Shown here: positions 6,976-63,807 of the stretch, piece by piece
Layout: each line of letters begins with the position of its first letter
How positions within the stretch are numbered: the stretch's first letter is position 1
Assembly (NCBI GenBank): GCA_965662335.1
Contig: CBFIGQ010000047.1
Coordinates: 13,131-77,130, forward strand
Direction of reading: 5' to 3'
From: Minisyncoccia bacterium
GTDB lineage: Bacteria > Patescibacteriota > Minisyncoccia > Phycocordibacterales > UBA9973
Length of the DNA: 64,000 nt
Program-made: the position numbers and the translations under genes
The notes under the pieces: generated by a model
Databases searched by the model: none
What the model was told of the DNA's origin: nothing
Seen by the model: only the letters and a program-made list of their open reading frames with translations

Positions 6976-8976
6976 ATGTTAAAAAATTCCTTTTTGAAGC
7001 GGACGGTCTTGATCACTGTGTTAGTGATACCGATAGTATGTTTCAAAGCGCTCGTCTTCCCTCATGTAACGAGTAAGGCGTATCTGTTTTATGGGCTCGT
7101 AGAAATCATCACAGCAGTATGGGTGTATGTCGTGTTGGTTGATCCGACTTGCCGGATAAGCCGAAGAGCGTTACTTTGGCTTATTCCATTTGGAGCATAT
7201 ATGGTGTGGCTTACTATTGCGGGCATGCTTTCTTTTAATCCACATCTTTCTGTATGGTCATCTCTCATGCGAGGAACGGGTCTTTTGACACTGTGGCATG
7301 GTTTTCTATTTATTCTCGTCCTTATGTCGCTTGTACAAAAATATGGAAAAGTATTTATATATACGGTGATGCAGTACACAGTCGCTGCGGGTGCCGTAGT
7401 GGGTGCGAGTATCTGGTTTGGAGATGAAGGACTTCGAGTACCTATTTCAGTACTACAAAAGGGAAGCGGGGGAGGGGTCGTAGGTAACTCATCACTTGCA
7501 GCAGCGTATCTGCTCTTTGTTGTTGCGTTTGCGTTGATACTTGTGTGTGCAAAAGAACTCAAACAAAAATGGTGGATATATCTATCACTTTTCATCATTA
7601 TTGGATCTCCGATTTTTATAAACATCATCGGACTGTGTAGGGGGATAGGGCTACTTGGAAGTGCTCGAGCTGCAACTGCTGCTATAGGGATAGGTGCAGT
7701 AGTGTCGGCGCTTGTACTACTCGTACTTTCACCTTCAAAAACTCGCAAAGTAATAGGTTGGTCAGGTATTGCTGCCGGTGTTGTTGTGTTTGTAGTGGTA
7801 TGGAGCCAGCTCATGACCTCAGGCACTGCAATTCATACCAAATTTATTTCTGAAACTTCTGATGCTCGGTTTATATTTTGGAATATTGCTCAAAATGCAA
7901 TGGATGAGCGACCACTACTTGGATACGGGCCAGAAAATTTCTCTATAGCAGTGCAGCGTCATTTTGATCCACAGCTCCTGTCAAAGGATTCTGGATTTGA
8001 GGTATGGAGCGATCGAGCTCATAACATATACTACGATACCGGTGTCTCGGGAGGGTATCCGGCAATTGTGTTATATGCACTCCTGATTGCAAGTATGATA
8101 GCTGCAGCATACAAAGCGTATACCAAAGGATTTTATACACGAACAGAAGTTGCGGTTTTTACGGGGCTTGTTGTTGCCTATGTCGTGCAAAACCTTACGG
8201 TATTTGATGGATTTATGTCACTCTTTGTGCTCTATATAACACTTGCAGTACTCTACGGAGCATTTAGAACTACGGACACTTCAACATATATAGTAAGTGA
8301 TAGGTATAAACCTTTACTTCCTGTTTTTCTAGTTGCGGCACTAGTCGGAGCTTGGTATTTGAGCATTAGACCGATAGAAAAGGCGCATGCCTTTGGAGAT
8401 GTGCTCGGCGATGCAGTCAACAAAAGACCAGACAGATATAAGTCACTTTTGAACGGCGCGTCTGTTGGTAATGACTGGGATGTAAGCGGATTTGCCCATG
8501 ATGAATACAAACTCTATGCCAGAGATCCCCTTGCAGTAAAAAGCGATCAGAGGCTGCTCCCGTATGGCAAGAAAGATATTGATGCATTTATCGCCTATAT
8601 AGAAACCATAGCTAACACCAACAAGACGGACTATCGTCTCTACCTCAGTATTGTGCACTTGTATAGCACAAAGATATATCTCGGAGATATGCCGTATGAT
8701 AATGCACTTGCAGAAAAGATACAGAGCTATATCGATACTGGGCGCATGCTCGCGCCGCGCGATCCACAGCTCTACTGGGCAGATGCACAGCTAGCTGCTT
8801 GGAAAGGAGATATACAGGGTGTAGTTACTGCGTACCAAAAAGGTATTGAGCTAGATCCGACACTTGCACCGTCACATAGACTATTGGTTGGTTTTTTGAA
8901 GGATACCGGTAACCAAAAACTATATGAACAAGCGCTCAAGCAGGCTCGGCAGGACATACCTGGATTTACCTTATAA
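6976..8976 (+). CDS. O-antigen ligase/polymerase-like membrane protein (Wzy_C family) with C-terminal soluble TPR-like domain
   Basis: About 12 predicted TM helices; Wzy_C-like motif RAHNIYYDTGVSGGYPAIVLY; start moved to MLKNSFLKR downstream of terminator. Confidence 0.6.
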   Translation: MLKNSFLKRTVLITVLVIPIVCFKALVFPHVTSKAYLFYGLVEIITAVWVYVVLVDPTCRISRRALLWLIPFGAYMVWLTIAGMLSFNPHLSVWSSLMRGTGLLTLWHGFLFILVLMSLVQKYGKVFIYTVMQYTVAAGAVVGASIWFGDEGLRVPISVLQKGSGGGVVGNSSLAAAYLLFVVAFALILVCAKELKQKWWIYLSLFIIIGSPIFINIIGLCRGIGLLGSARAATAAIGIGAVVSALVLLVLSPSKTRKVIGWSGIAAGVVVFVVVWSQLMTSGTAIHTKFISETSDARFIFWNIAQNAMDERPLLGYGPENFSIAVQRHFDPQLLSKDSGFEVWSDRAHNIYYDTGVSGGYPAIVLYALLIASMIAAAYKAYTKGFYTRTEVAVFTGLVVAYVVQNLTVFDGFMSLFVLYITLAVLYGAFRTTDTSTYIVSDRYKPLLPVFLVAALVGAWYLSIRPIEKAHAFGDVLGDAVNKRPDRYKSLLNGASVGNDWDVSGFAHDEYKLYARDPLAVKSDQRLLPYGKKDIDAFIAYIETIANTNKTDYRLYLSIVHLYSTKIYLGDMPYDNALAEKIQSYIDTGRMLAPRDPQLYWADAQLAAWKGDIQGVVTAYQKGIELDPTLAPSHRLLVGFLKDTGNQKLYEQALKQARQDIPGFTL

Positions 8977-22160: not shown

Positions 22161-22840
22161 TCCTGTCCCTCTGGTTATCTTCAAATAACTGCAGGAGAGG
22201 AGACAGTAGTACTGGATCAGCTCGAGCGGTCGAGCGAAGTCTGGTACGAACCCGCCTGATTCTCGGAGAGAGCTCTGGCGGGCATGATTTCTAGATTTCC
22301 TAATAGGAAATCAAGAGCATATGGTGGATGCCTAGGTTCTACATGGCGATGAAAGACGCGGGAGGCGGCGATACGCTTCGGGGAGGTGCCTACAAACCTT
22401 TGATCCGGAGATTTCTGAATGGGGAAACCCAATAGAGTAAACCTCTATTATCCCGACACATAAGTGGTCGGGGAGCGCACCCAGGGAAGTGAAACATCTC
22501 AGTACCTGGAGGAAAAGAAAAAAATGTTATGTATATAACGACATTCCCTAAGTAGCGGCGAGCGAAAAGGGACAAGCCCAAACCGGTGCATCATGGAGAC
22601 AATAAATTTATTTGTTGTCTCCATGATGCACCGGGGTTGTAAGGCAAAAGCGTCAATTTATTGAGAAGAGTTACAAAATGTATGTATAGAAGAAGTTGTT
22701 GGAAACCAACGCCATAGTGGGTGATAGCCCCGTAGTCGAAATGCATATATCTCTTTTGCTTTTGTTCTTGAGTACTTCCGGACACGAATAGCCGGGAGGA
22801 ATCCGCCAGAACTAACTGGTAAGGCTAAATACATTGTAGA

Positions 22841-22883
<43 letters not shown>

Positions 22884-24371
22884 TCCGAAAGGAGGGTGAA
22901 ATAGTACTGAAACCATATGCTTACAAGGAGTCGGAGCGGGTATTTATATCCGTCACGGCGTGCCTATTGAAGAATGAGCCAACGAGTTAATCTGTGCGGC
23001 TTGGCTAAGGTGTAAAGCACCGGAGCCGTAGGGAAACCAAGTGTGAATAGCGCGCAATTGGTCGTACAGATTAGACCCGAAGCCAGGTGAGCTATCCATG
23101 AGCAGGGTGAAGTTTGTCGAAAGACAGATGGAGGCCCGAACCGGTAAATCGTACAACGTTTTCGGATGACTTGTGGATTGGAGTGAAAAGCTAATCGAAC
23201 CTGGTAATAGCTGGTTCTCTCCGAAATAGCTTTAGGGTTAGCGTCACGTGTTCCCTTTGGGGGTAGAGCACTGGAAAGTTTCGACAGGGAGCAATCTCGC
23301 GACACTTATCAAACTCCGAATACCAAAGGTTAAGAACGTGGCAGTTAGTCTACGGGGGCTAAGCTCCGTCAGACAAAAGGGAAACAGCCCAGATCTCTAA
23401 ATAAGGTCCCTAAATCTGCACTCAGTACATCATAAGGATGTGAGATTTCTCTGACAATGAGGAAGTTGGCTTAGAAGCAGCCATCTTTTAAAGAAAGCGT
23501 AACAGCTCACTCATCGAGAGATCTTGCGCCGCAGATAATCGGGGTTAAGTGCAGTACCGAATTTGAGGGCTTGTAGATTTCATAAAGGAAAGAAAATTTT
23601 GGCGTGAGAAAGATTGGATACCAGATTGGCTCCACTTCTTTCTCTGCCAATCTAATTCCTTTTTTTATGAAATCTATAAGCGGTAGGAGAGTATTCCACT
23701 CTTGCTGTGAAGGCAAAGGCGTGAGCCATGCTGGAGCGTGTGGAAGTAAGAATGTTGGCACAAGTAACCGCAAGTCGGGTGAGAAACCCGGCCGCCGAAA
23801 GACTAAGGTTTCCTGGGTAACGGTTATCGTCCCAGGGTTAGTCGGGGCCTAAGGTGATGGCGAGAGCCGCAACCGATGGACAGTGGGTTAATATTCCCAC
23901 ACTTCTATTGTATTCGATGGAGGGACGAAGGGTAGTAACATATGCCTCTTATTGGATTGAGGTAGACATAGAGCGCAGGTAGGATAGGTAAATCCGTCTT
24001 ACAATACTGTCAACTATGGCTCGTGCGAAGCTACGGCTTAGCGAAGATATGTGAGCACGCTTCCGAGAAAAGCTTCTAAGATTAGTACAGTAGAACCCGT
24101 ACCGTAAACCGACACAGGTAGTCAGGTCGAGTAGACCAAGGCGAACGAGTGAGGGATCCCCAAGGAACTCGGCAAAAAAGCAGCCGTAACTTCGGGATAA
24201 GGCTTGCCGGCAGCAATGTCGGCCGCAGCGAAAGTATTCCTGGCAACTGTTTATCAAAAACACAGCTCCCTGCGAACTCGTAAGAGGATGTATAGGGGGT
24301 GACACCTGACCAATGCCAGAAGGTTAACCAACGGTGGTGCGATTATATCAAGCTGGCTGTTGTAAGCCCTG

Positions 24372-24406
<35 letters not shown>

Positions 24407-24615
24407 TTTGCATTTCAACCTCGTTGGAATGCAAAACGGACTAGGACTGTCTATAGAAAACGATAAACAATTTAAAAGAATAATCATTACATTTCAAGCT
24501 ACCTTTCATAGCGTAATCTATGAATAGTCCATTGTGATTAACGAGAGACCAACGTCACAGTTCCGACCCTTGTAAAAGGAGGAATAAGAGAGAGTCCAAC
24601 TGAGAGGAATAGTTG
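24407..24615 (+). other. About 209-nt ORF-less insertion in 23S between CCTAAGGT and AGCGAAATTCC (E. coli ~1917 region); group I intron-like
   Basis: Flanking exon sequence is contiguous in other 23S rRNAs; upstream exon ends in T and insert ends in G, as for group I introns; no ORF. Confidence 0.5.
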
Positions 24616-25274
24616 AGCGAAATTCCTTGTCGGGTAAGTTCCGACGCGCACGAATGGTGTAATGACTGGGAAACTGTCTCGGGGATTTGCTCGGTGAAAA
24701 TACAGTACCGGTGAAGATGCCGGTTACCTGCAGTTAGACGAAAAGACCCTAGAAGCTTTACTACAACTTGGTATTGGGCATGTTCTAGTACTACGTAGCA
24801 TAGGAAGGAGACTTTGAAGCGCCGCTTTCGGGCCGCGTGGAGTCGTCAGTGAAATACTTCTTTGTACGTGGGCATGTCCTAACCAGCGCGGCAAAAACGA
24901 GCTGGAACAGTGCCTGGTGGGTAGTTTTACTGGGGCGGTATCCTCCCAAAAAGTAACGGAGGAGTTCAAAGGTAGGCTAGGCGCGAATGGAAACCGTGCC
25001 GATAGTGCAATGGCATAAGCCTGCTTGACTGTAAGGGGGACATCCCGAGCAGGTGCGAAAGCAGAACATAGTGAACCGACAATTCGCATTAGATGCGGTT
25101 GAAGATTAACGGATAGAAGCTACTCTAGGGATAACAGGCTAGTTCCGCCTAAGCGTCCATAGCGACGGCGGAGTTCGGCACCTCGATGTCGGCTCACCTT
25201 ATCCTGGGGCTGGAGAAGGTCCCAAAGGTTTGGCTGTTCGCCAATTAAAAAGGTACGCGAGCTGGGTTCAGACC

Positions 25275-25715
25275 GTGAGGAAGTGAAAAGTACTACCATG
25301 AAGTGTACGGAACGAAGGGATACGACTCTTGTTTGCGTGATACTCATGAGTTCAAGTCTCTTTTGACTGACTCACCGTCTGAATCCTTGAGGAAATTTTT
25401 TGAAATGTTTTTTATAAAAACATTCACATATAAAATATGTTTTAGTCTTTTCGTCTAATAAGGTTAAAGCTCGTGTTCTCTTCTGCAAAGAGTACATGAG
25501 AGAAAGATAGTAATAAAAGAAACCAATCAGTTACGGCGGCTTCATATGGAGACATATGAAGTATGCTCAACTAATATCGGTGAAGGCCTTATGGGTTAAC
25601 ACCGAGGGAACCGTAAGGGCCCGTAGAGACTACAACTACGTTGAGGCACTCATGAAGTGCAAGATATAGTCCATTCCATACAGTAATGTGTGAATAAGAA
25701 GCGTAAGACAGGTTG
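25275..25715 (+). other. About 440-nt ORF-less insertion in 23S between GGGTTcAGAcC and CGTaAGACAGgTtGG (E. coli ~2585-2593 region); group I intron-like
   Basis: Conserved flanks interrupted at a classical rRNA intron site; exact boundaries ambiguous by a few nt; no ORF above 60 aa. Confidence 0.5.
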
Positions 25716-26042
25716 GTCTCCTATCTACTGCAGGCGTTGATACTTGAAGAAATTCGCTCCTAGTACGAGAGGACCGGAGTGAACGAACCTCTGGTGTACG
25801 GGCTCTAGTGCCAACTGGACCGCCCGGTAGCTATGTTCGGAATGGATAACCTCTGAAAGCATCTAAGAGGGAAGCCAGTTCTAAGATGAGGTATCGTCAA
25901 GGGCCGTAAGAGATGATTACGTTGATAGGCACCAAGTGTACGCGTAGTAATGCGCTCAGCTGAGGTGTACTAATTGCCCGACTCCTATTAGGAAATCTGG
26001 AAATCATAAATAAGAAAAGAAAAAATAATTCGAGCGCACTGT

Positions 26043-26151
<109 letters not shown>

Positions 26152-56087: not shown

Positions 56088-56269
56088 AGGGGTCGCTCTC
56101 CAAACTCTCTGGAAACTCTCCGGGGATTTGAGGGCATTCTTTAACAATTGCATACATGCATTAAAAGAATGCGAGTCAACACAATCTATTTATAGAAAAT
56201 GGATAACAATAATCCAGTGACAAGGGAATCATTTTTCTCTTGTCTCGATCTAAGTCACATTTGTGACTT

Positions 56270-57880
<1,611 letters not shown>

Positions 57881-58067: not shown

Positions 58068-58511
58068 TTGGTGACTCGCATTCTTACTGCATGTATCGCA
58101 CTTGTCGCAATCGGAGCATTCCTTGGAATGCTCCTTTTGCGTTCTCAAGTAGTCCCGTCTATTCGTACCCGTACGACCAGTATTCCCGTGCAGCTTGCGC
58201 GTACTACGAGCGAGCTCAAGCAAGGTCTCTCTGGTACCTCGTCGCTACCAGTCGGCACCGGCATGCTCTTTATATTTGAGCACCCAGGCGGGTATGGGTT
58301 TTGGATGAAGGATATGCAGTATCCACTCGATATTGTCTGGATGGATGAGAACCTCAGAGTGGTAGAGATAACACAACATCTCACTCCCGAGACTTTTCCT
58401 GAAGTGACTTATCCACAGGTTCCGGTCAAATACGTACTCGAACTCAATGCGGACACCGCAAAACAAGGTGGTTTTGTAATAGGAGAGAAAGTAAAATTGA
58501 GGGGCTACTAG
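58068..58511 (+). CDS. DUF192 (COG1430) family protein, membrane anchored
   Basis: N-terminal TM; conserved MLFIFEHPGGYGFWMKDMQYPLDIVWMDENLRVVEI core. Confidence 0.6.
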   Translation: MVTRILTACIALVAIGAFLGMLLLRSQVVPSIRTRTTSIPVQLARTTSELKQGLSGTSSLPVGTGMLFIFEHPGGYGFWMKDMQYPLDIVWMDENLRVVEITQHLTPETFPEVTYPQVPVKYVLELNADTAKQGGFVIGEKVKLRGY

Positions 58512-58659
58512 ATTTTGTTCGAAAACGATAACAAATGCTCTGTATTTATAATGCTCATCGAACGTGGTGCTTTACAATGTATGCAAACTATTTTCTGTAG
58601 ATGAATTTCGATGCAAAAATTCTGGCGAAGCCTTCGAATTTTGTATACTTGATACATTC

Positions 58660-59931
58660 ATGTCTATCAATCAAGTACGCAAACGAAGTGGAATGGTGGT
58701 TGAGTACGACCGTGCACGCATAGAGTCTGCTATTTCTCGCGCATACCAGGCCTCAAAGGTCTTGCTTGATATTGTGTCACTCTCAGACCTTGTTGATGCA
58801 GTCGAAGTGATGATCAACGACGCTTTCCCACAAGGCCATATCCCAGAAGTTGAAGAAATCCAGAACATCGTCGAAAAGGCAATTGCTGCAAAAGGTGATT
58901 TTGAGGTTGCAAAGGCATATATTTTGTATCGTGAGGAGCGCAATAAGGAACGACGTCGTGATATCTTTAAAAAGCGTGTGTACCTCAAGCCTTATGAATA
59001 CCCCGAACTCTATGAGTACGTAAACGCTATTCGACACTCATACTGGATCCATACTGAGTTCAACTTTGTGGGCGATGTGCAAAATTTCAAGGTCAATGTT
59101 GATGAAGTAGAGCGCAGTGCGATCAAAAACTCCATGCTCGCCATCGCGCAAATCGAAGTTGCGGTTAAAACATTTTGGGGTGATATCTACAAAAAGCTCC
59201 CAAAACCAGAGATTGGAGCAGTGGGAGCGACCTTTGCTGAAAGTGAAGTGCGCCACACCGATGCGTACGCGCACCTCCTTGAAATTCTTGGACTTAATGA
59301 GGCTTTCAAATCAATCGGAGAGATTCCTGCGCTTATGAAGCGTGTGCAGTACCTAGAAAAGTCGCTTTCAAATGCACGCAGCGAAGACAATAGAGACTAC
59401 TCTCAAGCAATACTTCTATTTTCACTCTTTATAGAGCACGTATCACTTTTCTCACAGTTCTTGGTGATGATGTCGTTTAATAAGTACAAAAACCTCTTTA
59501 AAGGCATCAGTAATGCGGTCGAAGCAACGAGCAAAGAAGAGCAAATTCATGGACTCTTTGGTATTGAAGTTATCAATATTATTAAGGAAGAACACCCTGA
59601 GTGGTTTGATGATACCTTTGAGGAAGATGTTATCAAGCTGTGCGAAGAAGCATTTGAATCAGAGCAGCAAGTCGTTGAGTGGATCTTTGAAAAGGGCGAG
59701 CTCGAGTTCCTCCCCAAAGCCGTCGTCATTGAGTTCATCAAACATCGCTTTAACAATTCTCTCCAGAGTATCGGTATCCGCAAGATATTTGAGACAGACG
59801 AGTCGCTACTCAAGGAGTCGGATTGGTTCTATGATGAAGTGATTGCAACGAAACACGGTGACTTCTTCAACAAGAAATCCATCAACTACAACAAAAAGAG
59901 TAAGAGTATTACCAGCGATGATTTATTTTAA
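58660..59931 (+). CDS. nrdB: Ribonucleotide reductase small subunit (NrdB-like, ferritin-like di-metal) with N-terminal ATP-cone
   Basis: ATP-cone VRKRSGMVVEYDRARIESAISRA at N-terminus; R2 motifs FAESEVRHTDAYAHLL, FIEHVSLFSQF, SKEEQIHGLFG. Confidence 0.75.
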   Translation: MSINQVRKRSGMVVEYDRARIESAISRAYQASKVLLDIVSLSDLVDAVEVMINDAFPQGHIPEVEEIQNIVEKAIAAKGDFEVAKAYILYREERNKERRRDIFKKRVYLKPYEYPELYEYVNAIRHSYWIHTEFNFVGDVQNFKVNVDEVERSAIKNSMLAIAQIEVAVKTFWGDIYKKLPKPEIGAVGATFAESEVRHTDAYAHLLEILGLNEAFKSIGEIPALMKRVQYLEKSLSNARSEDNRDYSQAILLFSLFIEHVSLFSQFLVMMSFNKYKNLFKGISNAVEATSKEEQIHGLFGIEVINIIKEEHPEWFDDTFEEDVIKLCEEAFESEQQVVEWIFEKGELEFLPKAVVIEFIKHRFNNSLQSIGIRKIFETDESLLKESDWFYDEVIATKHGDFFNKKSINYNKKSKSITSDDLF

Positions 59932-59937
59932 AATAGT

Positions 59938-61656
59938 ATGTATTGGCTAAACGAAAACAGTAGAAAATTCTTGGCAAAAGGCTATCTCATGAACGGACAG
60001 TCTGCCGAAGACCGTATCCGTGAGATTGCAACCATTGCAGAAAAGCATCTCGGAAAGCCTGGTTTTGCCGATAAGTTTTATGACTATATGTCTCGCGGCT
60101 TTTACTCACTTGCAACTCCTATCTGGGCCAACTATGGGCACACTCGGGGGCTTCCGATCAGTTGTTTCGGATCATACGTTGCAGATGACATGTCTCGTAT
60201 ACTGTACACGCATGCAGAAGTCGGCATGATGACCAAGTACGGAGGTGGTACTTCTGCGTACTTTGGAGACCTCAGACCACGCGGTGCTGAGATCAAGGGT
60301 AACGGACACTCGTCTGGGTCTGTGCACTTCATGGAGCTCTTTGATGGACTCATCAACATTGTCTCGCAGGGCACGGTGCGCCGTGGCCACTGCGCGCCCT
60401 ACCTACCTGTTGAACACGGAGACATTGATGAATTTTTAAATATTGGAAAAGAGGGACATCCGATCCAGGAGTCTACCTATGCGATCACAGTTGGAGACGA
60501 GTGGCTCAAGGCAATGGTTGGAGGCGACCAAGCAAAGCGCGCTATTTGGGCCAAGGTTATCCAGCGCCGCACTGAGATAGGCTACCCATACATTCTCTTT
60601 AGCGATACTGTTAATAACAATACCGTAGATGTCTACAAAGACAAGGGGGTGCGTATCTACGGCAGCAACCTCTGTTCTGAGATCTGTTTACCAACTGCGG
60701 ATGATATATCCTTTGTGTGCTGCCTTTCTTCAATAAACCTTCGCCACTACGAAGAATGGAAAGACACCGATGCAGTCGAAACACTCACCATGTTCCTCGA
60801 CACGGTGATCGGAGAATTCGTCGAACGCCTCGAAGCAATGCGAGACAGCAGCGACTCGCAAAAGCAATCTGCCTTTTACTTCATGCAACGCGCACACAAG
60901 TTCGCCAAAGAGCACCGCGCGCTTGGCCTCGGAGTGCTCGGGTGGCATACACTGCTTCAGGAGCGCAATATTCCATTCGAAAGCGCCGAAGCAGCCGCAC
61001 TTAACGAAGAGATCTTCAAGCTTCTCAAAGAAAAGGCATACGCAGCGTCTACGCAGATGGCCAAAGACTACGGAGAACCAGAAGTCCTCAAAGGCTACGG
61101 CCGCCGCAACACCACACTTCTTGCGGTTGCACCAACCACCTCAAGTGCATTTATTCTTGGGCAAGTTTCGCAAGGCATTGAGCCGCTTATGAGTAACGCC
61201 TTTGTGAAAGACGTCGACAAAATGAAAGTCACTATCAAAAATCCGACACTTGTTGCACTTCTTGAAGAAAAGGGAATGAATACTCCTGAGATCTGGAACA
61301 GTATTCGTGACAACGACGGTTCAGTGCAGCACCTCGACGGACTCACCGATCATGAAAAGAAAGTCTTCCGAACCTTTGCCGAGATAGATCAAAAGGCAAT
61401 CATTGACCAAGCTGCGACACGTCAGCAGTACATCGACCAAGCGCAGTCGCTCAACATCATGATCGATCCAAGTATTCCAGCGAAGGATCTCAACGCGCTC
61501 TATCTCTACGCATGGGAGAAAGGTATCAAGACCCTCTACTACCAGCACTCTATGAATGCAGCGCAGCAGTTTGGTCGCAAGAAGCTCCAAGAGCAAGATG
61601 CCAAGAAGCCCAAAGTCATGGTGATGGGGGAGGTGTGTGTAAACTGCGAGGCGTAA
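59938..61656 (+). CDS. nrdA: Ribonucleotide reductase large subunit (class I alpha) lacking ATP-cone
   Basis: Catalytic motifs PISCF, GGGTSAYFGDLRPRGAEIKG, NLCSEI, C-terminal CVNCEA redox cysteines; 572 aa. Confidence 0.85.
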   Translation: MYWLNENSRKFLAKGYLMNGQSAEDRIREIATIAEKHLGKPGFADKFYDYMSRGFYSLATPIWANYGHTRGLPISCFGSYVADDMSRILYTHAEVGMMTKYGGGTSAYFGDLRPRGAEIKGNGHSSGSVHFMELFDGLINIVSQGTVRRGHCAPYLPVEHGDIDEFLNIGKEGHPIQESTYAITVGDEWLKAMVGGDQAKRAIWAKVIQRRTEIGYPYILFSDTVNNNTVDVYKDKGVRIYGSNLCSEICLPTADDISFVCCLSSINLRHYEEWKDTDAVETLTMFLDTVIGEFVERLEAMRDSSDSQKQSAFYFMQRAHKFAKEHRALGLGVLGWHTLLQERNIPFESAEAAALNEEIFKLLKEKAYAASTQMAKDYGEPEVLKGYGRRNTTLLAVAPTTSSAFILGQVSQGIEPLMSNAFVKDVDKMKVTIKNPTLVALLEEKGMNTPEIWNSIRDNDGSVQHLDGLTDHEKKVFRTFAEIDQKAIIDQAATRQQYIDQAQSLNIMIDPSIPAKDLNALYLYAWEKGIKTLYYQHSMNAAQQFGRKKLQEQDAKKPKVMVMGEVCVNCEA

Positions 61657-61699
61657 AAAGTGATATAATCAGTCTATTACTAAATAAATCAATAAATAT

Positions 61700-62020
61700 A
61701 TGGGAATGGAAGGGTTTCCTTCAATGGAAAACAAGAAAGATATACCAGATAATATTTCTCAAGATAAGAAAGAGCGTTTTGAGAGCGGGGAGTGGAAAAT
61801 GATGAATACAGAGCCGATTCATCTAACGCAAGAAGAGTTAAATTTAGTTGAGAATGGAAAGGTAGATAGTCCTGAGGTTCAAAAACTTCTTGCCGAAAAA
61901 GGTATAGAATTTGGTGACGGTCACTTTTATAGAGTCAATGATGGAGCTATTATGGAGTTTGGATCTGATATGGGTACTTCGTTGATCACCAATAGCGATG
62001 AAATTATAAGTAGTAGTTAG
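61700..62020 (+). CDS. Hypothetical protein
   Basis: 106 aa, acidic, no domain; lies in first copy of the duplicated spacer. Confidence 0.3.
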   Translation: MGMEGFPSMENKKDIPDNISQDKKERFESGEWKMMNTEPIHLTQEELNLVENGKVDSPEVQKLLAEKGIEFGDGHFYRVNDGAIMEFGSDMGTSLITNSDEIISSS

Positions 62021-62053
62021 TATTGTAATTTTCAGGAAAATTTGTATAGTGTC

Positions 62054-62109
62054 TTTGTTGTACCGAACGATCGCGCTTGGCTCGCAAGAGTCAGGTGAGG
62101 AAAGTCCGA
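62054..62109 (+). ncRNA. Truncated, diverged second copy of the RNase P RNA 5' end (P1-P4 5' strand only)
   Basis: tttgttgtaccgaacgatcgcg-[8-bp hairpin, gcaa loop]-tgaggaaagtccga aligns with the RNase P RNA start at 63481-63531 and shows compensatory changes in the P3 hairpin; no P4 3' strand (ACAGAAnnCGGCTTA) follows. Confidence 0.5.
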
Positions 62110-62241
62110 TATGTCTATAGAGCTTGCAAATTGTTCACCAGAAGGGTACACTCAAAGTGTACCCTTCTGTCGCTTCGGTGGCAGGACGCGAAACCGCAAC
62201 ATATGTTGCGGTTTCTGCATTTTGAGCCTATGCTTTAAGGT

Positions 62242-62865
62242 ATGAAAATGAACGTCTATATCGACAGTTTCAACCTTTATTATGGCTGCCTCAAAAAGAA
62301 TTCATCAGTGAAATGGCTTGATATCTCCAAGCTGTGTCAGTTTCTTTTCCCAAAGGATACTGTCCAAAAAATAAAATACTATACAGCTGCGGTTAAACTT
62401 CGCCCAAATGATCCTGATACCGATAAGCCCAATAGACAACAAATCCATTTCAGAGCACTCCGTACTTTACCAACATTGGAATTATTTTATGGAACATTCC
62501 TTTCCCATACTGTTTCTATGAAGCGGGCGGATGGAAAGGGGTATGCTGATGTGATCAAGACGGAAGAGAAAGGAACTGACGTGAGTATAGCGACTCATTT
62601 GGTACATGATGCTCACAATAAAGACTTCGAAATAGCTGTGGTGGTATCAAATGATTCCGATCTTGTCGAACCAATCAGGATTGTTACTCAAGAACTTAAA
62701 CTCCCGGTGATTGTGGTAAGTCCGTTTGAACGAAACTCGATAGAATTGAAAAAGATAGCAAGCTCGGTGCGCCATATTCGTAATGGTGTGCTTCGGGTCA
62801 GTCAGTTTCCATTTGAACTTGAAGATGAAGTGGGGAAGTTTACAAAACCAGATACTTGGAAATAA
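62242..62865 (+). CDS. NYN-domain nuclease (LabA/YacP-like, PF01936)
   Basis: N-terminal VYIDSFNLYY and central/C-terminal GTDVSIATHLVHDA...AVVVSNDSDLVEPI motifs of the NYN/PIN-like fold. Confidence 0.7.
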   Translation: MKMNVYIDSFNLYYGCLKKNSSVKWLDISKLCQFLFPKDTVQKIKYYTAAVKLRPNDPDTDKPNRQQIHFRALRTLPTLELFYGTFLSHTVSMKRADGKGYADVIKTEEKGTDVSIATHLVHDAHNKDFEIAVVVSNDSDLVEPIRIVTQELKLPVIVVSPFERNSIELKKIASSVRHIRNGVLRVSQFPFELEDEVGKFTKPDTWK

Positions 62866-62872
62866 ATCCATG

Positions 62873-62983
62873 CAACAATTCGGCCGCAAGAAGCTTCAAG
62901 AGCAGGATGCCAAGAAGCCAAAGGTGATGGTGATGGGAGAGGTGTGCGTGAACTGTGAAGCGTAATCGCAATCAATAAATAAG
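62873..62983 (+). repeat. Diverged duplicate of the nrdA 3' end (last ~31 codons plus about 17 nt downstream)
   Basis: About 85% nt identity to 61565-61698; encodes the identical peptide QQFGRKKLQEQDAKKPKVMVMGEVCVNCEA with synonymous differences only. Confidence 0.7.
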
Positions 62984-63013
62984 AAAAACCACAGATATTA
63001 TTCTGCGGTTTTT
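62984..63013. terminator. Hairpin with flanking A/T runs (candidate bidirectional terminator)
   Basis: aaaaaccacag-atattatt-ctgcggttttt. Confidence 0.5.
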
Positions 63014-63019
63014 AAATTT

Positions 63020-63277
63020 TCAGGGAATGGCCCTTAATTTTCTGTAAGAAGGGTTGCCATCAAATTGAGATTTATCAATAAAAGCAATTGAAGACTCACC
63101 TTCAGCACTTCCGGTATCAATGATAACTTCTGTATCATCACATACCCATATTGCCTCATCTGCACAAAGATGTTTTTTATCTTTAAGATAAAACTGGAGA
63201 ATAGTGTTTGCTCTGAGGTCATTTAATCCAGAATAGACATCGGTGATTGTATAACAAAGGTCGCTTTCATGCAGCAT
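63020..63277 (-). CDS. Hypothetical protein
   Basis: 85 aa, no domain; in second copy of spacer. Confidence 0.3.
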   Translation of the reverse strand: MLHESDLCYTITDVYSGLNDLRANTILQFYLKDKKHLCADEAIWVCDDTEVIIDTGSAEGESSIAFIDKSQFDGNPSYRKLRAIP

Positions 63278-63477: not shown

Positions 63478-63480
63478 TCC

Positions 63481-63806
63481 TTTGTTGCACCGCACGATCG
63501 CGTCCGCCAGCTGGCGGATGAGGAAAGTCCGAACACACAACAGTTCATTCTGTACAGGTAGCGGGTAATGCCCGTCTGGCGCAAGCCAAGGACTGCGAAC
63601 AGTGACGAATCTTTGATGAGTAAGGGGTCTTGACCTGAGCTTGTCGAAGGGTGAAACGGCTAAATGTCTACCCGTGTGCAAGGCCGTGCCAGATATCCAC
63701 GTGGTCTCTGGAGTGCTGCTACAGGTGTTTGGTAACAAACATCGCAGATAAATGATCGAACTATCAATTGATAGCAACAGAATTCGGCTTACGAGTGCAA
63801 CATCAT
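63481..63806 (+). ncRNA. rnpB: RNase P RNA (bacterial type)
   Basis: P4 strands GAGGAAAGTCCGaAC and ACAGAAttCGGCTTAC, AAGGGTGAAAcGG motif, P1 pairing tgttgcac/gtgcaaca; about 325 nt. Confidence 0.8.
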
Positions 63807-63807
63807 G

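Follow-up and report, generated by a model that had tools for sequence, protein, structure and literature searches.

A class Id ribonucleotide reductase operon from Patescibacteria predicted to be controlled through an ATP-cone on its radical-generating subunit

Is the allosteric on-off control of a class I ribonucleotide reductase (RNR) exerted here through the radical-generating subunit (NrdB, beta) rather than the catalytic one (NrdA, alpha)? The question is raised by an nrdB-nrdA pair in a 64,000-nt stretch of DNA from a Minisyncoccia bacterium (GTDB lineage Bacteria; Patescibacteriota; Minisyncoccia; Phycocordibacterales; UBA9973; assembly GCA_965662335.1, contig CBFIGQ010000047.1, positions 13,131 to 77,130 of the forward strand), which as a whole we call the window. 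A first-pass annotation, made from the letters alone, had read the upstream open reading frame (ORF) as an ATP-cone joined to a ferritin-like R2 core and the downstream one as a short catalytic subunit without a cone, had placed allosteric control on the radical-generating subunit, and had called the architecture rare. Our analysis indicates that the pair is very probably a class Id operon from Patescibacteria (Paceibacteria/Nomurabacteria-like), whose activity would be switched by the beta-borne ATP-cone via a beta4 tetramer driven by deoxyadenosine triphosphate (dATP). The domain architecture, the subclass, the conservation of catalytic, metal-site, and cone core residues, and the gene order on which this reading is built were all observed directly.

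Both halves of NrdB are recognized with ample margins. Pfam PF03477 (ATP-cone) matches residues 5 to 95 at 69.3 bits (cut-off, 25.8; E = 4.4e-19; profile positions 2 to 87 of 88), and PF00268 (Ribonuc_red_sm) matches residues 106 to 380 at 194.5 bits (cut-off, 33.6). The motifs quoted in the first-pass annotation are present as well: VRKRSGMVVEYDRARIESAISRA occupies residues 6 to 28 and includes V6-R7-K8-R9-S10-G11, FAESEVRHTDAYAHLL contains E196, H199, and Y203, and EEQIHGLFG contains E294 and H297. The gene is a single unbroken reading frame through cone and core. A mechanical ORF list had offered a longer NrdB beginning at GTG 58564, which we rejected; the homologs begin at ATG 58660, and we take this ATG as the start because homolog lengths and alignment from the first residue agree (411 to 429 residues, matching from residue 1, in 120 of 120 homologs among the matches listed). 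Both Pfam domains were found on all 120 NrdB homologs listed out of 8000 protein matches.

The downstream gene follows in the beta-then-alpha order that had been described, its ATG lying 6 nt past the nrdB stop. Pfam finds only Ribonuc_red_lgN (residues 3 to 70) and Ribonuc_red_lgC on its 572-residue product and no ATP-cone, and since nrdA starts so close to nrdB and cannot be extended upstream in frame, an N-terminal cone on NrdA is excluded. A hidden cone was rejected on the same grounds, with lgN matching from residue 3; in the alignment with 6DQX, whose chain has no cone, residue 2 of NrdA is paired with residue 31. The domain search proposed as a check thus came out as expected, with an N terminus of NrdB that scores as an ATP-cone and a second ORF that has none. 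NrdA scores 777.7 bits against the NCBIfam equivalog TIGR02510 (NrdE-prime; cut-off, 602.25), and its best matches in the PDB are the class Id alphas 6DQX (E = 7.8e-216) and 6DQW (E = 7.4e-177). It carries the motifs PISCF (C76), NLCSEI (N244, C246, E248), and CVNCEA (C567, C570), together with C261, Y534, and Y535. C76, N244/C246/E248, C261, and Y534/Y535 are kept in 72 to 73 of 73 full-length sequences, and C567-x-x-C570 is found in 61 to 62 of the 73 full-length relatives. An exact-protein look-up returned no record identical to NrdA. From these features, nrdB and nrdA are predicted to encode an intact class Id holoenzyme.

To place NrdB we used a set of related loci consisting of the best 80 of at least 557 matching genome stretches, which with the window gives 81 sequences. 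The R2 core has the metal ligands E166, E196, H199, E259, E294, and H297, including two E-x-x-H motifs (E196/H199 and E294/H297), and the class Id signature residues K170, W173, Y203, and T290; all of these are invariant in 81 of 81 sequences. Window numbering equals that of Leeuwenhoekiella blandensis NrdB minus 4, so that Glu170, Lys174, Trp177, and Tyr207 of that protein correspond to E166, K170, W173, and Y203, and Glu263, Thr294, and His301 to E259, T290, and H297. The published signatures of NrdBi, Asp to Glu, Tyr to Trp, and Gly to Lys (PMC6754362), appear in the window as E166, W173, and K170. Among solved structures, the window NrdB is nearest in sequence to that of L. blandensis with its ATP-cone (5OLK; 559 bits, E = 5.8e-167), followed by the cone-less 6SF4/6SF5 and then the class Id beta of Flavobacterium johnsoniae (6CWO-6CWQ), with class Ia, Ib, and Ic far behind; core and tail are 70% identical to L. 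blandensis NrdB. These residues and matches assign the core to R2 of the NrdBi/class Id type. In the C-terminal tail, which we take to bind alpha and to bear the radical-transfer tyrosine as in class I RNRs generally, Y410, D421, L422, and F423 are invariant across the 81 sequences.

Change has been faster in the cone than in the core, with mean identities to the window NrdB of 48% over the cone (residues 1 to 100; lowest value, 28%) and 80% over the core. Eleven cone positions, K8, R9, A24, V64, E65, Q68, E72, Y87, Y90, R91, and R98, are nevertheless invariant in the 81 sequences. Over residues 6 to 99 the cone aligns to those of Pseudomonas aeruginosa NrdA (5IM3) and of an anaerobic RNR (9D3X), and its invariant positions are identical residues in the P. 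aeruginosa cone, which binds two dATP molecules; those in helices 3 and 4 are shared as well with L. blandensis NrdB where its cone aligns. Because the invariant positions persist despite this fast divergence, the cone appears to be under purifying selection and to be functional rather than a relic.

The metal cofactor, nucleotide binding, and beta4 mechanism of the window enzyme we infer from characterized homologs. NrdA would reduce ribonucleoside diphosphates at a site formed by C76, C246, and C261 and would be re-reduced via its C-terminal C567-x-x-C570 tail. The oxidant in NrdB would be an Mn2(IV,III) center on the six ligands, probably assembled with superoxide, with K170 directed at the metals; T290 would keep Y203 away from the metals, and therefore no tyrosyl radical is expected. 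ATP binding to the cone would leave beta as a dimer that forms the active alpha2beta2 complex. Binding of dATP, probably as two molecules bridged by Mg2+, would make the cones of two dimers pair, giving a beta4 tetramer able to bind alpha only as nonproductive alpha2beta4 or alpha4beta4. Inactivation through dATP-driven beta4 has been shown for L. blandensis NrdB (PMC5794259), so that the proposal of control through the radical-generating subunit is supported by homology with the very protein whose structure lies closest. The beta-cone of Facklamia ignava also gives dATP-induced beta4, although it shares only 28% identity with that of L. blandensis (PMC6187632), and the same mechanism is most likely here because a cone so different drives it too.

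Several observations weigh against this reading. The cone-cone interface residues of the L. blandensis beta4 structure (5OLK) are only partly kept: K89, I92, and R95 are retained as K85, I88, and R91, but D73 has become N69 (D in 51 and N in 30 of the 81 sequences), D76 has become E72, M80 has become A76 (A in 40, M in 38), and I93 has become L89 (L in 67, I in 14). Three of these seven positions are therefore identical between window and L. blandensis, two are conservatively replaced, and two are changed, and the geometry or strength of tetramerization could differ from that in L. blandensis. The aromatic residue at cone position 16 is Y in the window and F in 80 of the 81 sequences. The second half of the cone is about 37% identical to the L. 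blandensis cone, and its first half, the N-terminal 46 residues, is left unaligned to 5OLK by phmmer. Finally, no NrdR box, NrdR-box-like palindrome, or other regulator site was recognized by eye upstream of nrdB in 47 aligned upstream regions.

The cone could accordingly be a working ATP/dATP sensor that inhibits the enzyme by another quaternary arrangement, such as a different cone-cone or cone-core contact or a direct block of alpha binding. The replacements at N69, A76, and L89 favor such an arrangement, with the clade split about evenly at two of them, and across enzymes the inhibited states produced by ATP-cones include alpha4, alpha6, alpha4beta4, and beta4 (PMC11226230). We consider it unlikely, given that K85, I88, and R91 are kept and that F. 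ignava NrdB still makes dATP-induced beta4 with its divergent cone. It is very improbable that the cone is a relic that no longer binds nucleotides, leaving an enzyme as unregulated as the cone-less class Id RNRs. The cone is indeed conserved far less than the core, and NrdBi is fully active without one, both in F. johnsoniae (6CWO) and in L. blandensis NrdB truncated to remove residues 1 to 99; however, the Pfam score lies well above threshold, eleven positions including the K-R pair are invariant, and a full-length cone is kept in 80 of 80 genomes that are very small and would usually shed sequence of no use. That the fusion is an artifact of a wrong start, a frameshift joining a separate cone gene such as nrdR, or a chimeric assembly is scarcely credible, even though the window is probably a metagenome assembly with an odd duplication just downstream, since the frame is uninterrupted, an identical 423-residue protein occurs in an independent assembly (P0001), the same fused length recurs in 80 genomes from many studies, and Pfam finds no zinc ribbon of the NrdR kind on NrdB.

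Inhibition through beta4 thus remains our preferred reading, and comparison with characterized systems shows where the window enzyme stands. L. blandensis NrdAi/NrdBi (5OLK, 6SF4/6SF5; PMC5794259) has the same N-terminal cone of about 100 residues, short linker, R2 core, and disordered tail, a likewise cone-less NrdA, and all of the metal-site and class Id signature residues, but its host belongs to the Flavobacteriia whereas the window comes from Patescibacteria, and three of its named tetramer-interface residues are substituted in the window. F. ignava NrdB (PMC6187632, PMC6754362) is also class Id, with a cone on beta, dATP-induced beta4, and an Mn2(IV,III) cofactor; it has an additional N-terminal glutaredoxin domain (glutaredoxin, ATP-cone, R2), whereas the window NrdB begins with the cone. 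The enzymes of F. johnsoniae and Actinobacillus ureae (6CWO-6CWQ, 6DQW, 6DQX) belong to the same NrdAi/NrdBi subclass, and what the window NrdA matches best in the PDB is their minimal alpha of about 560 to 580 residues. Matches of the F. johnsoniae beta chains (6CWO-6CWQ) to the window NrdB begin only at about residue 100, so these chains have no cone; the F. johnsoniae NrdB is described as having no additional domains (PMC6754362), which by inference leaves the F. johnsoniae RNR without an ATP/dATP master switch. The P. aeruginosa NrdA cone (5IM3) shares the K-R, EEIQ..VE, and Y..YR..R positions with the window cone but sits on the catalytic subunit and drives alpha4 instead of beta4. Meiothermus NrdF (class Ib; PMC5794259) resembles the window in bearing its cone on the radical-generating subunit; its cone, however, is C-terminal, it belongs to the NrdE/NrdF subclass, and it is uncharacterized.

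The claim of rarity held in one respect and failed in another. A 2018 survey of RefSeq found 93 cone-bearing NrdB sequences, 70 of them from Flavobacteriales (PMC5794259), and by that measure the architecture is rare. In this Patescibacteria lineage the beta-cone layout is routine: a cone-bearing nrdB of 419 to 439 residues lies directly 5' of nrdA in 80 of the 80 related loci, with an nrdA of 541 to 580 residues where the contig holds the whole gene. All 80 loci come from metagenome-assembled genomes, mostly of Paceibacteria, Nomurabacteria, and other Patescibacteria, with several labeled "uncultured bacterium." Beta-cones are reported almost exclusively from beta-then-alpha operons (70 of 104 NrdAi operons; PMC9669993). 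When NrdB residues 1 to 140 were compared with 1.84 billion cluster representatives, about 33 of the best 150 matches spanned the cone-core junction. Six longer representatives of 720 to 1020 residues (P0257, P0272, P0282, P0302, P0299, and P0369) match the cone and the start of R2 (query residues 5 to 140, approximately) in one stretch and could be further fusion architectures, for example with extra domains or as beta-alpha fusions. The 80 loci yield 82 NrdA matches, as two loci have a split match. At L001, 756 nt separate nrdB from the first NrdA match, which spans only 340 residues (L001 2174-2929), and at L078 the spacer between nrdB and nrdA measures 428 nt (7276-7703); these gaps may be insertions in or before nrdA in the relatives concerned.

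The architecture, structure, mechanism, and link to operon order have all been published, and the window pair itself adds little to RNR biology. What it corrects is the picture of the beta-borne cone as a rarity of Flavobacteriia, since it is the standard RNR layout in a large block of Patescibacteria; our literature search found nothing relevant that ties Patescibacteria, the candidate phyla radiation (CPR), or Parcubacteria to beta-cone RNRs. The cones of this clade are diverse, down to the 28% identity to the window given above for the first 100 residues, and could be mined for the residues that the beta4 switch needs. Patescibacteria with a beta-cone RNR would carry an enzyme that depends on oxygen and superoxide. 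According to the 2018 paper, all species with a cone-bearing NrdB also encode other RNRs (PMC5794259). A tblastn search confined to the 64-kb window detected no second RNR or ATP-cone gene. It is possible, though on present evidence doubtful, that Paceibacteria-type Patescibacteria have the beta-cone class Id enzyme as their sole RNR, whereas in every case known in 2018 it was an accessory to a class II or III RNR. If so, dATP would control the whole deoxyribonucleoside triphosphate supply of these reduced genomes by causing the radical subunit to be sequestered, and the need for superoxide in forming Mn2(IV,III) would tie the replication of these supposedly fermentative symbionts to oxygen exposure.

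Upstream of the operon, TTTTGTATACT is the likely nrdB-nrdA promoter, as judged from its sequence (Table 1). The pattern TTTTGTATA(A/C)T recurs 10 to 60 nt before the nrdB start in many of 46 relatives (L001-L046) compared by eye, and (G/T)CTTTACA, likewise promoter-like and also present in the window, occurs about 80 to 110 nt before the start in many of the same relatives. A DUF192 gene is the conserved upstream neighbor of nrdB in 40 of the 80 related loci.

Table 1. Features of the window, in window coordinates.
Feature	Position	Strand	Basis or remark
23S rRNA gene	22301-25992		23S-5S pair spans 22301-26149
5S rRNA gene	26043-26149		
16S rRNA gene	56269-57880		
DUF192 gene	58068-58511		
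(G/T)CTTTACA	58569-58577		by eye
Promoter-like element, extended -10-like	58639..58649	+	10 nt before nrdB start; kept in relatives
nrdB, NrdBi/class Id radical-generating beta	58660..59931	+	423 aa, N-terminal ATP-cone; ORF, Pfam, PDB
ATP-cone domain, NrdB residues 5-95	58672..58944	+	Pfam PF03477; linker and core start at about residues 96-106
Ferritin-like R2 core, NrdB residues 106-380	58975..59799	+	PF00268; residue mapping to L. blandensis
NrdB C-terminal tail, residues 398-423	59851..59928	+	Y410 and terminal SDDLF; conservation
nrdA, NrdAi/class Id catalytic alpha	59938..61656	+	572 aa, without ATP-cone; Pfam, TIGR02510, PDB
nrdA 3' end, first copy (94 nt including stop)	61563-61656		
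NrdA C-terminal CxxC (C567, C570), redox shuttle tail	61636..61647	+	inside the 94-nt segment duplicated downstream
106-aa ORF	61700-62020	+	no match in Pfam, PHROGs, PADLOC, NCBIfam; also on contig L081
Promoter-like site	62023-62050		ahead of rnpB fragment
rnpB 5' fragment, 60 nt	62053-62112		compare genuine rnpB 63480-63540; P1/P2 strands, P3 hairpin, P4 strand GAGGAAAGTCCGA
Two-hairpin RNA element, about 70 nt	62155-62230	+	directly upstream of NYN gene; covariation
NYN-domain gene, 207 aa	62242-62865	+	PF01936; phrog_7929, 230 bits; PADLOC HEC-09, 148 bits
nrdA 3' end, second copy	62872-62965		
Terminator	62984-63013		
85-aa ORF	63020-63277	-	no match in Pfam, PHROGs, PADLOC
RNase P RNA (rnpB)	63482-63807		

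The region just downstream of the operon holds, with the NYN-plus-RNA module described below, the parts of the window that could yield something new. The 3'-terminal 94 nt of nrdA, stop codon included, recur 1309 nt downstream at 85% identity, so that an insertion of about 1.3 kb is flanked by duplicated nrdA 3' ends. The 30 residues encoded by both copies are identical (QQFGRKKLQEQDAKKPKVMVMGEVCVNCEA), and the 14 differences all fall at third codon positions (chance, about (1/3)^14 under random placement); both copies therefore appear to have diverged inside working nrdA genes. Just ahead of the repeat, three codons (NAA) are missing from the second copy, and the only good nrdA terminator comes after that copy. 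Read along the insertion, an nrdA tail, a spacer, and the rnpB 5' fragment come before the cassette, and a second nrdA tail, a spacer, and then rnpB come after it. The P3 hairpin of the rnpB fragment differs in sequence from that of the genuine rnpB yet still pairs, and a promoter-like site lies ahead of the fragment, which resembles part of a functional rnpB from a relative. Positions 61581 to 62935 are matched at 100% identity by an independent Logan contig (L081); because that contig spans both insertion junctions, these are real. A related lineage found in four JGI samples (L082-L085) has nrdA, a different small ORF, an NYN gene (89% identity), a shorter and decayed copy of the nrdA tail, and rnpB. 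A simple tandem duplication in situ and an assembly chimera are both disfavored by the third-position-only differences, the Logan contig, and the layout in L082-L085. We speculate that the insertion arose by a long target-segment duplication around a cassette, or by integration of a small circle through recombination within that segment, and that the purely synonymous divergence reflects later replacement of one copy by a relative's allele.

In close relatives (L001-L046), rnpB also lies downstream of nrdA, with its P4 motif 78 to 1082 nt past the stop when it is on the same strand; a few have it on the other strand, at distances of up to 1662 nt from the nrdA stop. The nrdA-rnpB spacer seems to be a hot spot at which small variable genes collect. 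The 106-aa and 85-aa ORFs of the window, which sit in the two copies of this spacer, are unrelated to each other.

The cassette carries a gene for an NYN-domain protein, in which D8, N11, EEKGTDV, and SNDSDL are invariant in 33 homologs. About 6500 homologs occur in the protein collection, and the gene is absent from all 80 related RNR genome loci. Scans of metagenome and viral collections with the single protein gave no confirmed loci, whereas a scan with an alignment (A2) did find loci. HEC-09, its PADLOC match, is a candidate RNase defense gene, and the only published test of it showed no protection (bioRxiv 10.1101/2024.01.29.577857).

The NYN gene is directly preceded by a structured RNA element. 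Its 5' end is rich in C; two hairpins follow, P1 (with UUCG as its loop) and P2, joined by the linker G-Y-GCGA, and CUGCAUUU comes last. The element also precedes NYN homologs only 47 to 65% identical to the window protein, and its pairing is backed by covariation. RNAalifold on an unbiased MAFFT alignment of 34 sequences gave 21 pairs, 16 of them with changes on both sides; 95.8% of the cells are paired, against 38 to 52% with slid partners, and 0 of 500 shuffles reached the observed covariation. A model-fitted alignment of 88 matches, of which 79 are distinct in sequence, shows covariation at 19 of 21 pairs. A seed-derived covariance model found a site of at least 28 bits at 83 of 83 NYN loci and only one site in the 64-kb window; in the NYN-free RNR loci (656 kb) it found nothing above 17 bits. 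Searches with Rfam 15 returned no family for the element at E ≤ 1 in the window, nor at the gathering score in 12 other loci, an exact 19-mer from it had 0 matches in viral contigs, and we found no literature on a structured RNA associated with NYN genes. At six loci (L128, L152, L164, L167, L168, and L169) the element lies upstream of the NYN gene on the opposite strand and is followed by a good terminator, and L163 has two tandem copies. Because these opposite-strand copies end in a terminator of their own, the element is probably an independent small RNA gene rather than a 5' untranslated region, both at those loci and in general. A reasonable hypothesis is that the NYN gene and the RNA form an RNA-plus-nuclease module, for example of a toxin-antitoxin-like kind.

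The rRNA genes of the window are unlinked, with the 16S gene 30 kb away from the 23S-5S pair. The 23S gene measures 3692 nt against a model of 2925 positions, about 770 nt of extra sequence, in which neither a homing-endonuclease-like ORF nor an Rfam intron match was seen and which a comparison with Escherichia coli failed to place. The 16S gene is about 80 nt longer than its model.

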